Origin: Calditrichaceae bacterium
GTDB taxonomy: Bacteria; Calditrichota; Calditrichia; Calditrichales; JBFXGD01
Direction: 5' to 3'
Assembly (NCBI GenBank): GCA_050178385.1
Contig: JBFXGD010000088.1
Span: 1,257-13,886, forward strand
Length of the DNA: 12,630 bases
Of this stretch, positions 1 through 9,723 are shown one piece after another (position 1 is the first letter of the stretch; every line of letters starts with the position of its first letter). The translations under genes were made by a program, and so were the position numbers. The notes beneath the pieces are model-generated. The model was not told where the DNA came from. It did not search any database and saw only the letters and a list, made by a program, of their open reading frames with translations.

Positions 1-65
1 TTGCCACTGCATCCGATATACCGTTTTTTATCTTTTTCACTTAACAATATATAAACATCATACAT
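1..65 (-). CDS. GIY-YIG nuclease, second tandem copy (5' part only; runs off the window edge)
   Basis: ATG at 65..63. Bases 1..65 are identical to 307..371 and encode MYDVYILLSEKDKKRYIGCSG. Confidence 0.85.
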   Translation of the reverse strand, partial: MYDVYILLSEKDKKRYIGCSG

Positions 66-127
66 GGCGGATTCGCCCGCCTAAGGCGGGTTGCAGACCT
101 CTCCCTTAGCCACTTGGGTACGTCGCC
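66..127 (-). pseudogene. Degenerate tRNA-Cys(GCA), copy 2
   Basis: Identical to 372..433; begins 1 nt after the TAA stop of the 129..371 ORF. Confidence 0.85.
76..90. repeat. Perfect short palindrome CCCGCC-TAA-GGCGGG (copy 2)
   Basis: 6-bp all-GC inverted repeat with a 3-nt loop. Confidence 0.9.
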
Positions 128-128
128 A

Positions 129-371
129 TTAATCTGTTAATTTTTTATTCAGAAACTCTCTACCCTTGCCGCTTTTGAAAAATTTCTCTCTGTTCATTGC
201 AGCTTGTTTATCGGGAAAAGTTTCTTTATAAACCAATTTCAAAGGTCGTCTGTTTCTGGTGGACTTTACCAGACCGGCTTGATGCTCTGACAGTCTTCGT
301 TCCAGATTGCCACTGCATCCGATATACCGTTTTTTATCTTTTTCACTTAACAATATATAAACATCATACAT
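129..371 (-). CDS. Small stand-alone GIY-YIG nuclease (UPF0213/SLX1-like family), 80 aa
   Basis: Motifs VYIL-x8-YIG, RRLSEH, KSTRxRRPLKLVYxE and AxxREKFFK include the Tyr, Arg, His and Glu positions typical of the family. Confidence 0.92.
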   Translation of the reverse strand: MYDVYILLSEKDKKRYIGCSGNLERRLSEHQAGLVKSTRNRRPLKLVYKETFPDKQAAMNREKFFKSGKGREFLNKKLTD

Positions 372-433
372 GGCGGATTCGCCCGCCTAAGGCGGGTTGC
401 AGACCTCTCCCTTAGCCACTTGGGTACGTCGCC
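372..433 (-). pseudogene. Degenerate tRNA-Cys(GCA), copy 1
   Basis: Minus strand reads GGCGACG TA CCC AAGTGGCTAA GGG A GAGGT CT GCA A (5' acceptor strand, D-arm, 5' anticodon stem, GCA anticodon), then CCCGCCTTAGGCGGG, then CGAATCCGCC (T-loop and 3' T-stem). The 3' anticodon strand (ACCTC) and the 3' acceptor strand (CGTCGCC) are absent. Confidence 0.88.
382..396. repeat. Perfect short palindrome CCCGCC-TAA-GGCGGG (copy 1)
   Basis: 6-bp all-GC inverted repeat with a 3-nt loop, directly after A37 of the pseudo-tRNA. Confidence 0.9.
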
Positions 434-454
434 GGAACCCTATAAATAAAAAAG

Positions 455-527
455 AGCGAGAGACGGGATTCGAACCCGCGACCCCAACCTTGGCAAGGTT
501 GTGCTCTACCAGCTGAGCTACTCTCGC
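455..527 (-). tRNA. tRNA-Gly(GCC); CCA not encoded
   Basis: GCGAGAGTAGCTCAGCTGGTAGAGCACAACCTTGCCAAGGTTGGGGTCGCGGGTTCGAATCCCGTCTCTCGCT folds to a complete cloverleaf with anticodon GCC and a U discriminator. Confidence 0.97.
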
Positions 528-567
528 TTAAACATTACATATATATGCTTTATTTTTAGAAGTGGAA

Positions 568-596
568 AATATAAAACTTTTTTAATTTCCTGTCAA
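568..596 (-). promoter_or_regulatory. Sigma70-type promoter for tRNA-Gly and the downstream array
   Basis: TTGACA (596..591), 17-nt spacer, TATATT (573..568), about 40 nt upstream of the tRNA, with AT-rich sequence further upstream. Confidence 0.75.
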
Positions 597-620
597 ATAT
601 TTTTTATCAAATTTTAAGTG

Positions 621-752
621 TTATTTCCACCTGTCTTTTATCTGCTGCTTCAGCCTGTTCTTTCTCCTGGCTGCTTTCTTACCAGATTCTCTGGCTTGCA
701 TCAGATAAAACACAAAAATAAATACTAACAGTATTACTATTATACTTTCCAT
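621..752 (-). CDS. Hypothetical 43-aa single-pass membrane peptide
   Basis: ATG at 752. MESIIVILLVFIFVFYLMQ is a hydrophobic helix followed by a Lys/Arg-rich tail. The longer track ORF (start 821) overlaps tmRNA, so the start was trimmed. Confidence 0.6.
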   Translation of the reverse strand: MESIIVILLVFIFVFYLMQARESGKKAARRKNRLKQQIKDRWK

Positions 753-760
753 AATATTAG

Positions 761-1115
761 TGGAGACGCCGGGAGTTGAACCCGGGTCCGAACATGGACC
801 AACATAAACATCTACAATCATAGCCGGTTATTAGTTCTCGTTTTGCAACAGGCTGACCGACAGGCCAGTTTCAAAACCAGTTCATAAAGTTTTTGAAACT
901 TAACGCATGAACATCATTAAGCTCAAATCCACCCAAATACGGCGCTTAACTTATCCCCGGTGAATCAGAGAAGAGCAAAGCGTGACAGCATTATTAAGCT
1001 GCCATTGCATAATTATAATCGGCACTTATCGTGCTTCTGACTAATTACGGGATAGTCAGGATCCCGGATTGCCGTTCATATCCTTCACATGCCCGTCGAA
1101 TCCAAAATCGTCCCC
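761..1115 (-). ncRNA. ssrA: tmRNA
   Basis: 5' GGGGACG..TGGATTCGACGG; 3' T-arm CCGGGTTCAACTCCCGG and CGTCTCC-A acceptor strand with G3:U70. Tag frame 1023..994 encodes ADYNYAMAA followed by TAA TAA. Length 355 nt. Confidence 0.96.
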
Positions 1116-1130
1116 GGACATATATTGACT

Positions 1131-1142
1131 CTTCAAAGAACT
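1131..1142 (-). promoter_or_regulatory. boxA-like antitermination motif upstream of tmRNA
   Basis: Minus strand AGTTCTTTGAAG resembles rRNA-leader boxA; lies 15 nt before the tmRNA 5' end. Confidence 0.4.
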
Positions 1143-1143
1143 A

Positions 1144-1213
1144 AAGGAAGGTGACCGTGATCAGGGGAAGGCCGGGGGAGGACCTTTTATGCTGAACCTT
1201 AGTCACCTTCCTT
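1144..1213. other. 70-nt imperfect stem-loop in the tmRNA leader (candidate structured RNA)
   Basis: Perfect 12-bp inverted repeat aaggaaggtgac (1144..1155) / gtcaccttcctt (1202..1213), with inner pairs tcag/ctga and aagg/cctt. Confidence 0.6.
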
Positions 1214-1246
1214 AAATTCTCTGAAAATCGTATTTCAATAGCTATA

Positions 1247-1275
1247 AATATACAAGTTATTTATAATTTTATCAA
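1247..1275 (-). promoter_or_regulatory. Sigma70-type promoter upstream of the stem-loop and tmRNA
   Basis: TTGATA (1275..1270), 17-nt spacer, TATATT (1252..1247); same -10 hexamer as the tRNA-Gly promoter. Confidence 0.65.
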
Positions 1276-1341
1276 GTATCAGCGTTTGTTAATATGATAT
1301 ATTTTCGAAAGATAATTCCGTTAGTTTAATTTTTTCGCAAA

Positions 1342-1740
1342 TCAGGTCAAAAACCGGTCCAGCTCTCCCGTATCAGGCACCGGACATGATTCATATTTAC
1401 CAAACCAGCGGTACCGATGATTTGCGATCAGATCATAAATCCAATCTCTTATAGTCCCCGGGATCAATATAAAAACATAAAGCACAGGCCATAATCCGTC
1501 AAGTTCCTTTACAATCCTTAATGCTGCCGATGATCTTAAATATGCACTGCCCTCCCTGAACAAAACAATAGAATGCGCGTAATTTTCCCGTATTCCGGAC
1601 AGTTTTAATATCTCCTTTGCTTTATCTGAATCCAGATGCGCAAAACTGAATTTTCTCGCTGAATCTCTTTTTATAATAAATCTCACACTGCCGTTACAAA
1701 ACTTACAGATTCCGTCATATAAAACAATTTGTTTGTCCAA
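1342..1740 (-). CDS. DCC1/DUF393-family thiol-disulfide oxidoreductase (YuxK-like)
   Basis: N-terminal YDGICKFC (DGxCxxC) motif, RSSAAL and RDWIYDLIANHRYRWFGK..SC; TTG start. Confidence 0.92.
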   Translation of the reverse strand: MDKQIVLYDGICKFCNGSVRFIIKRDSARKFSFAHLDSDKAKEILKLSGIRENYAHSIVLFREGSAYLRSSAALRIVKELDGLWPVLYVFILIPGTIRDWIYDLIANHRYRWFGKYESCPVPDTGELDRFLT

Positions 1741-8790: not shown

Positions 8791-9723
8791 TTGGACAGAA
8801 GAGATCAATTCGATTATTTTGAGCTGCGCTGGTATGATCGGATTGACCGAAGATTTTCAGCTATCCTGTTCCTTTGTCTTATACTGACTTTTACATGGGT
8901 TTATATTGCCGCTAATTTTAACTATGATAAGTTTCAAACCGAGGTCCGCTCACAAATCATCACAAAATACAAACAGTTCGCTGCTGAACTAATCATTGAA
9001 CCGCCAGAAATATCTGATATGGCAGTGGATTCAGAATCACTGTCTTTTTCCGAAACGGAAAGTACGCGGGAAACTCCCGAACGTATTTCTCCCGGGGAAA
9101 GACGCGACCGCGAAAGGAAACGAATCGAAGATGAAATAGGGAAAAGTGAGTTTATGTCATCTATCGCCAGATCAGATCCATATGCCGATCTGCCTGATCC
9201 TGAGACAGATTTCCTGTTTGATGACGGGAGATCTTTTATTGAATTAGAACGCCCGTCTCCTGAAAGCCGGATAATACCATCCGGAAGATCCGGTCATGAT
9301 AATTTTGACGCCGGAACACTTGATGATCCTTTAAAGAGCCCTTTTAATTACAAACTGGAAAGAAGAGGCGCGGCTTATATCGAGTTCACGGATGAACTCC
9401 TGCGCCAGCCCGATGAACCCAACGGTTATCGTGATCCTGAAGAAATCAACCGGGTAATATATGACTACCGGCCGATGATTGAGTACTGTTTCAGGAAAGG
9501 CTCCAGACTCAACACCGGCATGAAGGGTTATATAAAAGTGCAATTCAGGATATCCTACAAGGGCCATGTTCTGCCGGAGAGCATAAAAATTATCGGCTCA
9601 ACCATTCATGACCGGAACGTCGAGCAATGTATTAAGAATTACATCAGCCGCTGGCGCAATTTTAAACGCCTGGATGAAACAATGGGGATCGCTAAAGTTG
9701 TCCAAAAATTTGTTTTTAATTAG
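8791..9723 (+). CDS. Single-pass membrane protein with an AgmX/PglI-like (TonB-C-like) C-terminal domain
   Basis: TTG start after GGAGA; one N-terminal TM helix; acidic, Pro/Ser-rich linker; C-terminal RDPEEINRVI..IEYCFRK..GYIKVQFRI..G.V..STI....VEQCI..F with the characteristic Cys pair. Confidence 0.75.
   Translation: MDRRDQFDYFELRWYDRIDRRFSAILFLCLILTFTWVYIAANFNYDKFQTEVRSQIITKYKQFAAELIIEPPEISDMAVDSESLSFSETESTRETPERISPGERRDRERKRIEDEIGKSEFMSSIARSDPYADLPDPETDFLFDDGRSFIELERPSPESRIIPSGRSGHDNFDAGTLDDPLKSPFNYKLERRGAAYIEFTDELLRQPDEPNGYRDPEEINRVIYDYRPMIEYCFRKGSRLNTGMKGYIKVQFRISYKGHVLPESIKIIGSTIHDRNVEQCIKNYISRWRNFKRLDETMGIAKVVQKFVFN

Follow-up and report, generated by a model that had tools for sequence, protein, structure and literature searches.

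The stretch of DNA considered here, referred to below as the window, is a 12,630-nt segment of a contig from a Calditrichaceae bacterium (NCBI GenBank assembly GCA_050178385.1, contig JBFXGD010000088.1, positions 1,257 to 13,886 of the forward strand), and our subject is a short GC-rich palindrome that lies in it, inside a dead copy of a transfer RNA (tRNA) gene for cysteine and just before the gene of an 80-amino-acid (80-aa) GIY-YIG nuclease. What is seen here is a single copy of a GC hairpin cassette, conserved and with perfect self-complementarity, that travels with the 80-aa nuclease gene inside tRNA operons. Coordinates are window positions, and the locus is read on the minus strand. It begins with a sigma-70-like promoter (568..596, minus strand), made up of TTGACA, a 17-nt spacer and TATATT with 11 of 12 matches, which stands about 40 nt upstream of an intact tRNA-Gly(GCC) gene (454..527, minus strand; called by ARAGORN and by Rfam RF00005 with 70.8 bits). 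This is the first gene of a conserved Gly-Cys(-Leu) tRNA operon, and the order Gly-Cys-Leu is also found at L008, one of the related loci, in a Calditrichaceae metagenome-assembled genome (MAG). After a gap of 20 nt follows the first pseudo-tRNA-Cys copy, with tRNA positions 1-37 (397..433, minus strand), in which the acceptor 5' strand, the D arm, the anticodon stem 5' strand and the anticodon loop up to A37 can be read from 433 to 397 with the anticodon GCA, and which equals the first 37 nt of the intact L008 tRNA-Cys. Next come the palindrome CCCGCCTTAGGCGGG (382..396, no strand; 15 bp, perfect), in place of tRNA positions 38-55, and a T-loop/T-stem remnant, CGAATCCGCC (372..381, minus strand; tRNA positions 56-65). 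The acceptor 3' strand is missing because the open reading frame (ORF) of the nuclease, P0001, starts right after the CCGCC that ends at 372 (129..371, minus strand; ATG at 371..369; 80 aa, a minimal SLX1/UPF0213-type domain).

One base past the stop codon of this ORF the pseudo-tRNA/palindrome/ORF unit restarts, with tRNA positions 1-37 of a second pseudo-tRNA-Cys copy (91..127, minus strand; a 100% repeat of 397-433), a second palindrome (76..90, no strand; located by pattern search), a second T-loop remnant (66..75, minus strand; identified through the tandem repeat) and the start of a second GIY-YIG ORF (1..65, minus strand), which shows 21 codons before it runs off the window. The period of this tandem amplification is 306 nt, and 1-127 is 100% identical to 307-433 over the visible 127 nt; as database protein P0006 (55 aa), the second ORF copy has one substitution, E24K, just past the window edge. 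The order of the locus is thus promoter, tRNA-Gly, and then at least two repeats of a hairpin-bearing dead tRNA-Cys copy with a nuclease ORF directly after it. There is no promoter-like site between tRNA-Gly and the ORFs and no terminator-like site in 1..1350; the hairpin itself runs into CGAATCC with no T run, and is therefore not an intrinsic terminator. The site at 568..596 is the likely promoter of the whole tRNA-Gly/pseudo-tRNA/nuclease transcription unit, which, judged by these signals, would be co-transcribed.

The palindrome CCCGCCTTAGGCGGG consists of perfect 6-bp arms and a 3-nt loop. In an alignment with the intact L008 tRNA-Cys(GCA), the shared 37 nt are followed in the intact gene by the 18 nt AACCTTTATGCGCCGGTT and then by CGAATCC, whereas in the window those 18 nt, tRNA positions 38-55, are exchanged for the 15 nt of the palindrome, which is therefore a replacement and not an insertion; the preliminary description of this stretch, which had placed a replacement from just after A37 to the T-loop, is borne out on this point. 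The resulting copy lacks the anticodon stem 3' strand, the variable loop, the T-stem 5' strand and the acceptor 3' strand, all of which a functional tRNA-Cys requires. ARAGORN makes no call on it, finding only tRNA-Gly and a transfer-messenger RNA (tmRNA), and no intact tRNA-Cys, in the window, and a search of 1..450 with Rfam 15 gives no RF00005 match at E ≤ 10, its other matches being at chance level (E about 3). The pattern CCCGCCNNNGGCGGG, with up to 2 mismatches allowed, has 2 matches in the 12,630 nt (76-90 and 382-396) against 0.15 expected, and two or more matches occur in 0/200 shuffles. As single-stranded DNA, the palindrome at 382-396 has a predicted hairpin of -7.4 kcal/mol. A tRNA-like fold of the pseudo-tRNA RNA as a whole was also considered and is rejected, since all 79 nt together fold no better than shuffles (z +0.33).

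The GIY-YIG domain covers all 80 aa of P0001 (Pfam PF01541, E 2.1e-15). Its nearest solved structures are two nuclear magnetic resonance (NMR) structures of UPF0213 (1ywl, E 2.2e-13; 1zg2, E 5.6e-13) and that of SLX1 (7wme, E 7.8e-6), and the protein is therefore placed among the prokaryotic Slx1-like minimal nucleases. The columns Y16, G18, R26, H30 and E62 are invariant among 36 relatives, and all are kept in P0001. By sequence, P0001 is a member of the UPF0213/SLX1-like minimal GIY-YIG family, also designated YhbQ and COG2827, and a structure-specific nuclease activity is predicted for it. A C-terminal DNA-binding domain of the I-TevI/Seg type (NUMOD, zinc finger or helix-turn-helix) is absent from P0001, and no longer homologues were found; the failure to find fused or longer relatives (141-2000 aa) is weak evidence. 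Predicted proteins of 157-214 aa with two matches to the 80-aa profile, P0107, P0108 and P0114 among them, possibly represent read-through across tandem arrays. The gene is under purifying selection, with ratios of nonsynonymous to synonymous change (pN/pS) of 0.05-0.36 in 11 informative pairs of homologous ORFs; the 0.75 obtained for L003 versus L016 was disregarded, as the two sequences were compared without gaps and are probably out of register, and two further pairs are identical and give no ratio. The family is large, a profile search returning 25,326 clusters (50% identity) at E ≤ 0.001 and 6,824 at E ≤ 1e-10. A link with phages was rejected, because phage records with a relative number only 14 and the one examined, of a Rhizobium phage, has no tRNA or palindrome context.

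For the survey of relatives, representative genomes were scanned with the protein profile and 80 of 85 confirmed loci were analysed with 2.5 kb on either side, the genome of the window not being among them. Loci L050 and L051 are 100% identical over 5,240 nt; most counts include both and therefore hold one duplicate, and the counts of T-psi-C motifs and of broad palindromes drop L051. The 80 loci span at least 15 phyla, including Ignavibacteriota, Calditrichota, Bacteroidota, Chloroflexota, Planctomycetota, Verrucomicrobiota, Lentisphaerota, Pseudomonadota, Acidobacteriota, Elusimicrobiota, Omnitrophota and several phyla of the Candidate Phyla Radiation (CPR). The association of nuclease, tRNA and palindrome in them was observed directly. 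An intact tRNA on the same strand ends within 150 nt upstream of 45/90 nuclease gene starts, and 56 of the 57 complete nuclease clusters have such a tRNA within 450 nt upstream or 250 nt downstream, with only 8 tRNAs in the 235 kb that lie more than 700 nt away from clusters. The linked tRNA varies by lineage (Cys-GCA, Arg-ACG, Arg-TCG, Val, Met, Asn, Pro, Trp and others). A perfect GC palindrome is found in 42/57 complete clusters, every one of which also has an intact tRNA (42/42), and nearly always it is embedded in a dead copy of that tRNA; it lies within 220 nt upstream or 90 nt downstream of 61/83 full-length nuclease genes.

Within the 12.6-kb window and the 2.5 kb to either side of the relatives, palindromes cluster at nuclease/tRNA loci. 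The specific motif has 78 copies in 357.5 kb (the 80 loci plus the window), compared with a mean of 0.9 and a maximum of 2 in 20 shuffles; over the 150 nt that precede a nuclease start its density reaches 2.26/kb, versus 0.14/kb elsewhere, and most copies counted as elsewhere lie 17-47 nt past a nuclease ORF. When the palindrome is defined more broadly, by arms ending in CC, 103 copies fall in cluster zones (2.04/kb) and 20 outside (0.07/kb), with 6-15 per shuffle. Both 10-nt flanks match a tRNA in 65/108 palindromes against 43/3000 random sites; only this both-flank figure is used, the chance rate of one-mismatch 10-mer matching being high for a single side (496/3000 random sites). The type of arm tracks the protein clade and not the host phylum, the CPR loci L004 and L011 belonging to the CCCGCC clade and other CPR loci having TCCGCC or GTCGCC arms, in a protein tree which is weakly resolved and in which arm type and clade are confounded by relatedness. 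The survey thus found the co-location with homologous GIY-YIG genes and tRNA fragments across genomes for which the preliminary description had proposed to test, and this co-occurrence favours its suggestion of a hairpin tied to the adjacent nuclease, in the manner of repetitive extragenic palindromic (REP) sequences.

The cassette has a core of GCC, 2-4 nt and GGC, with arms that are mostly CCCGCC or TCCGCC. The junction of the window, after A37 and before C56, is also found in tRNA-Cys copies of Melioribacter isolates, Ignavibacteriaceae, Calditrichaceae and a Wirthbacteria MAG, and in tRNA-Trp copies of two CPR MAGs. Replacement there is discrete: a search with CTGCAA-type and CGAATCC-type anchors, in which the middle was left free, gave 55 sites, comprising 23 native tRNAs, 28 palindromes of 15 nt and 4 unrelated sequences, with no intermediates. 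All 28 anchored palindromes have zero arm mismatches, and in the 21 elements with the window junction (18 distinct rows) 108/108 cells of the arms are paired, compensatory changes at the fifth arm pair converting C-G into U-A in 2 rows and into G-C in 1. On either side of the palindrome, the sequence of a pseudo-copy agrees with the intact tRNA at the same locus, with the exception of L016, whose downstream pseudo-copy has the T-stem and acceptor of another Melioribacter tRNA-Cys and not those of the local intact gene. The outer flanks of the pseudo-tRNAs are truncated or decayed, and the hairpin is still perfect; this decay is not used quantitatively, as the inner flanks are fixed by the anchors and the outer mismatches mix truncation with substitution. 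In the window, the right arm of the palindrome contains GGCGG, the predicted 5' strand of the T-stem, and a microhomology with the T-stem had been proposed on that account. Among the 21 elements, CCGCC follows the palindrome only in the window, and the relatives have CCGAC, CCGAT, ACGCT, CCGGC or CCCAC at this place, the native tRNA-Cys T-stems of relatives being GCCGG/CCGGC, GTCGG/CCGAC and AGCGG/CCGCT; the microhomology does not extend to them. In 34 of 61 loops the ends are complementary (TNA), against 15 expected (p 3e-7), and the site in duplex form is therefore a 15-bp palindrome; variants with 1 mismatch show no excess of G.U on the sense strand (5 G.T vs 7 C.A). Both the TNA loops and the absent G.U excess favour action as DNA over action as RNA.

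The replaced sites are in the D-loop, the anticodon region and the T-loop, and several dead copies hold two palindromes. The D-loop is replaced in tRNA-Arg-ACG copies of Chitinophagaceae and in tRNA-Cys copies of L017, L021 and L022, and in the tRNA-Arg-TCG copies of L049 and L063 it has received a pure insertion of 19 nt; ARAGORN calls a 94-nt 'tRNA-Cys' at 2734-2827 of these two loci, which is really the tRNA-Arg(TCG) copy with its 19-nt palindrome insertion. The GTCGCC-type palindrome replaces the whole anticodon arm, tRNA positions 22-32 are replaced in L013 and L015, and replacement of the T-loop also occurs. In a tRNA-Val copy downstream of the nuclease at L075 (2729-2830) the D, anticodon and T loops are each replaced by a 14-nt palindrome centred on CCTAGG, the outer arms of which partly resemble the local stems. 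A second type of hairpin, TCCCGC/5-9-nt loop/GCGGGA, was seen at L002 (63-79) and L016 (about 2290), in the D region of decayed tRNA-Cys copies that also hold the main palindrome.

These parts are variously arranged, as intact tRNA, nuclease and pseudo-copy; pseudo-copy, nuclease and intact tRNA (L004, L011); and tandem arrays of pseudo-copy and nuclease (the window, L007, L013, L050). In addition, five tandem 99-nt tRNA-Cys/palindrome units without an ORF precede an intact tRNA-Cys and a nuclease at L003 (1913-2406), in a Melioribacter isolate. At L020 (2850-3350), a 166-aa ORF without a Pfam match lies between an intact tRNA-Trp and a partial tRNA-Trp copy with the same palindrome at the same junction, so that the architecture is as for the nuclease gene and the cargo is different. 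The whole contig of L007 is 666 nt long with a coverage of 753, and numerous nuclease loci are at most a few hundred nt away from the end of their contig; position at contig ends and high coverage are as expected of a collapsed multi-copy repeat that breaks assemblies.

We tentatively read the hairpin as the cis element of a selfish module resident in tRNA clusters, a proposal to which we would give somewhat less than an even chance. The hairpin would be a structured DNA site, either a single-stranded hairpin or a small cruciform, that the nuclease binds or nicks, and such a site could be recognised by a domain that lacks any DNA-binding module. By acting on the stem-loops of tRNA genes and on the hairpins, the nuclease would provoke recombinational repair between tRNA-derived repeats; through this repair the cassette would be pasted into loops of redundant tRNA copies, tandem arrays would arise, and the block of tRNA, pseudo-tRNA and nuclease would move between loci and genomes, with one intact tRNA copy always being kept by selection. 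In favour of the proposal are the linkage of palindromes to nuclease genes and tRNAs, their position in tRNA-derived DNA, the discrete and perfect state of the hairpin, the signs of action as DNA, and the purifying selection on a protein of the structure-specific SLX1 lineage. The foreign T-stem and acceptor at L016 fit such movement, and the way in which arm types go with protein clades and not with host phyla fits the proposal as well, in a tree that is poorly resolved and confounded by relatedness.

Several points weigh against this proposal. Binding or cutting of the hairpin by the nuclease is a supposition. About 10 of 56 complete clusters with full-length nuclease genes have no perfect palindrome under either definition, and the hairpin is therefore not obligatory. 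If the nuclease cut hairpins only, repair from the intact copy would erase them, so that cleavage of hairpin-free tRNA DNA would also be required. Intrastrand template switching could keep the arms perfect and produce compensatory changes without selection, a palindrome of 6-7 bp is short for cruciform extrusion in duplex DNA, and arm type and protein clade are confounded with relatedness. Finally, in 96/105 cases the 70 nt downstream of the palindrome contain no intact T-psi-C motif that belongs to the same unit, which fits an immunity function of the palindrome equally well. In its relation to the nuclease, the hairpin may be a substrate, a handle or a scar.

The immunity function just mentioned had already been raised in the idea of a scar that immunises the target, and this remains a live rival and the main one, although we regard it as unlikely: a SegB-like homing endonuclease would cut tRNA genes, the palindrome would be a patch that destroys its target, for example the T-psi-C motif, in redundant tRNA copies, and one intact copy would survive because its loss is lethal. 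According to the accessible part of its description (PMC2330249), T4 SegB is indeed a GIY-YIG enzyme of a tRNA cluster that recognises GGTTCRANTCC and cuts the 3' ends of tRNA genes; the palindrome of the window removes the 5' T-stem strand and the TT of the T-psi-C motif, an intact T-psi-C of the own unit follows within 70 nt after only 9/105 palindromes versus 106/116 intact tRNAs, and an intact copy always stands beside the palindrome-bearing ones (42/42). A scar, however, need not be a perfect palindrome with arms shared across phyla, let alone one that stays perfect in 28/28 cases as its outer flanks decay; in nine units the T-psi-C is intact and the palindrome is confined to the D loop or the anticodon arm; and three different segments of tRNA-Cys are replaced within one protein clade. 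This explanation would also have an 80-aa protein without a DNA-binding domain read a 27-bp site, and it would leave the adjacent intact tRNA cuttable. A function at the RNA level, with the hairpin protecting mRNA ends in a tRNA-mRNA transcript, blocking the processing of the dead copy or throttling the translation of a toxic nuclease, seems improbable to us. It would suit the apparent co-transcription with tRNA-Gly, with a promoter only upstream and no terminator, the hairpins that precede many start codons by 10-70 nt and follow the ends of many ORFs by 17-47 nt, and the compensatory arm changes that preserve pairing; for SegB, a hairpin that occludes the ribosome-binding site and tRNA processing have been proposed as brakes on expression, in the part of the paper available (PMC2330249). 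It does not suit L003, where all five hairpins are upstream of an intact tRNA that would be processed off the mRNA and none comes after the ORF, or L078 and L020, where the nearest nuclease gene is hundreds of nt away from pseudo-tRNAs with hairpins; moreover, the arm sequence is conserved across phyla beyond what pairing needs, with TNA loops in excess the duplex site is symmetric, a sense-strand G.U excess is absent, and the 79-nt pseudo-tRNA RNA folds like shuffles.

The palindromes could also be passive by-products without a function, frequent simply where a nuclease makes breaks: the DNA of tRNA genes, which is highly transcribed and prone to form hairpins, would break, and repair by fold-back or template-switch synthesis would create palindromes and then keep them perfect. 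It is established that quasi-palindromes mutate by template switching, the outer arms of some CPR elements resemble the local stem around a constant CCTAGG centre (L059, L075), which hints at fold-back synthesis, the right arm at L024 coincides with the native anticodon-stem strand, and the state is binary, with no intermediates. On the other hand, the arms at the window junction do not derive from the native sequence that they replace, CCCGCC being found in genomes with differing T-stems, and unrelated tRNAs and phyla share arm types; we give this explanation, too, a small probability. A two-state fold, in which GGCGG has two alternative partners, the CCGCC upstream and the CCGCC downstream, and so gates the adjacent AUG, had been suggested for the window, where both pairings are possible, and is now largely refuted and most improbable. 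Pairing of the right arm with the downstream strand occurs in 77.8% of cells, equal to shuffles (320/500 reach it), the second pair of this alternative helix is unpaired in 15/18 distinct rows, and there is no covariation; the helix is not conserved and, therefore, neither is a switch acting on the AUG, and most relatives have their ORF start either 18-215 nt farther downstream or behind an intact tRNA. The T-stem microhomology and the AUG switch are at best peculiarities of the window copy. An artefact of collapsed or mis-joined metagenomic assembly, which might have created both repeat and palindrome, would be in keeping with the source being a MAG contig, with the many related loci that end at contig edges and with the 127-nt exact repeat, 127 being a common k-mer size of assemblers. 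Yet the 127 nt are set by the window edge and not by the repeat, beyond the window the two ORF copies are distinguished by one residue, and the same architecture, although many of the loci come from MAGs, is present in isolate genomes and complete chromosomes (L003, L007, L050, L063, L046, L072); for these reasons the locus is treated as real, and an artefact is scarcely credible.

The element resembles, in its working, both REP sequences with their REP-associated tyrosine transposases (RAYTs) and the homing endonucleases of tRNA clusters, and is a member of neither. As in REP/RAYT systems, short GC-rich hairpins in multiple copies flank one small gene of nuclease type and the hairpin type follows the linked gene, and the proposed logic, in which the nuclease recognises and propagates its own hairpins, would be the same. 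In contrast to them, the linked protein is a GIY-YIG protein and not an HUH/Y1 (IS200/IS605-like) transposase, and the hairpins sit in tRNA segments that they replace rather than in arbitrary intergenic DNA. REP hairpins have a GTAG head, which the hairpin here lacks. Integrative elements target tRNA genes and duplicate part of the tRNA; as with these, the cargo lies between an intact tRNA and a partial direct repeat with junctions in the anticodon loop and T-loop, but no integrase adjoins it, the repeat is interrupted by the palindrome and the cargo is a single 80-aa nuclease gene. The GC clusters of yeast mitochondria and the hairpin-forming repeats of sponge mitochondria are reportedly short, GC-rich sequences that invade genomes, including regions of RNA genes; they differ in being organellar, and to our knowledge no dedicated linked nuclease gene has been established for them and no specific overwriting of tRNA loops is known.

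Free-standing GIY-YIG homing endonucleases within tRNA gene clusters are represented by T4 SegB and the F-Tfl enzymes of phage T5, and SegB targets the T-psi-C motif GGTTCRANTCC in tRNA genes and is co-transcribed with tRNAs, as stated in the accessible part of the SegB paper (PMC2330249). The gene studied here is likewise a GIY-YIG gene embedded in a tRNA cluster, probably transcribed with the tRNAs, with a putative target in tRNA genes and, as is described for SegB in the same part of that paper, with co-inheritance of flanking tRNA genes. It differs in that SegB, as described there, has a C-terminal DNA-binding part with a NUMOD3 motif, like I-TevI, whereas here there is a bare catalytic domain, and in that the elements here are chromosomal in bacteria; the part of PMC2330249 available mentions neither palindrome cassettes nor dead tRNA copies. 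A further link to tRNA would be provided by COG4123, which we take to be the tRNA m6A37 methylase TrmN6. The accessible part of Dunin-Horkawicz et al. 2006 (PMC1564403) describes bacterial Slx1 homologues as a minimal stand-alone domain, with recurrent fusion or operon links to the COG4123 N-methyltransferase and one fusion to TrmH. In that part, the family is treated mainly as vertically inherited repair proteins, and residence in tRNA operons, tandem arrays and linked palindromes go unmentioned (PMC1564403). No account of tRNA-linked mini GIY-YIG genes with palindromes was found in the full-text literature, the coverage of which leaves out most subscription journals, and a selfish element that resides in tRNA operons and rewrites tRNA genes apparently has not been described.

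The surroundings of the locus in the window are as follows. Upstream of the promoter and tRNA-Gly, on the minus strand, lies a standard one-piece tmRNA (758-1115; 184 bits; tag peptide ADYNYAMAA), the 3' end of which is overlapped by a 66-aa ORF (621-821) that has no Pfam match and is probably spurious. A 24-nt inverted repeat (1132-1155/1202-1225; 88% complementary, arms 46 nt apart) stands between the tmRNA 5' end and a promoter-like site on its far side (1275..1247, minus strand), and could either form a structure in the leader of the tmRNA precursor or mark the transcript end of the upstream DCC1-like gene. A 310-aa ORF (8791-9723, plus strand) matches no Pfam family at E ≤ 0.01; its neighbours are housekeeping genes, for glycogen synthase, a HAD hydrolase, CoaE and a hybrid histidine kinase, together with an FG-GAP protein with a tail of the type IX secretion system (T9SS).

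In its widest form, which we consider possible and rather doubtful, the proposal of a selfish module is that of a class of selfish element which has gone unrecognised: a hairpin cassette of 14-16 bp and a structure-specific GIY-YIG nuclease of 80 aa, with no further domain, would together have colonised tRNA operons across many phyla (those of the Fibrobacterota-Chlorobiota-Bacteroidota (FCB) and Planctomycetota-Verrucomicrobiota-Chlamydiota (PVC) groups, Chloroflexota, CPR and others). The nuclease would attack the stem-loops of tRNA genes, each redundant copy would receive the cassette in its D, anticodon or T loops, and the element would carry the only intact copy of the tRNA beside its own gene, so that it would combine a homing element with an addiction module, because the host could not delete it without losing an essential tRNA. 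Palindrome-bearing copies can in any case be miscalled, as at L049 and L063, and tRNA annotation is affected accordingly. If the proposal is true, a very small structure- or sequence-directed pair of nuclease and site would become available for study, and it would be explained why pseudo-tRNAs recur and contigs break at tRNA loci in the genomes of Bacteroidota, Ignavibacteriota, Calditrichota and CPR. It would also give a lead to the function of UPF0213, a family with solved structures and no known role. The smallest known GIY-YIG nucleases would then not be only housekeeping repair proteins, and many members of the 25,326-cluster family would be mobile residents of tRNA operons that kill and rewrite duplicate tRNA genes with a defined hairpin.

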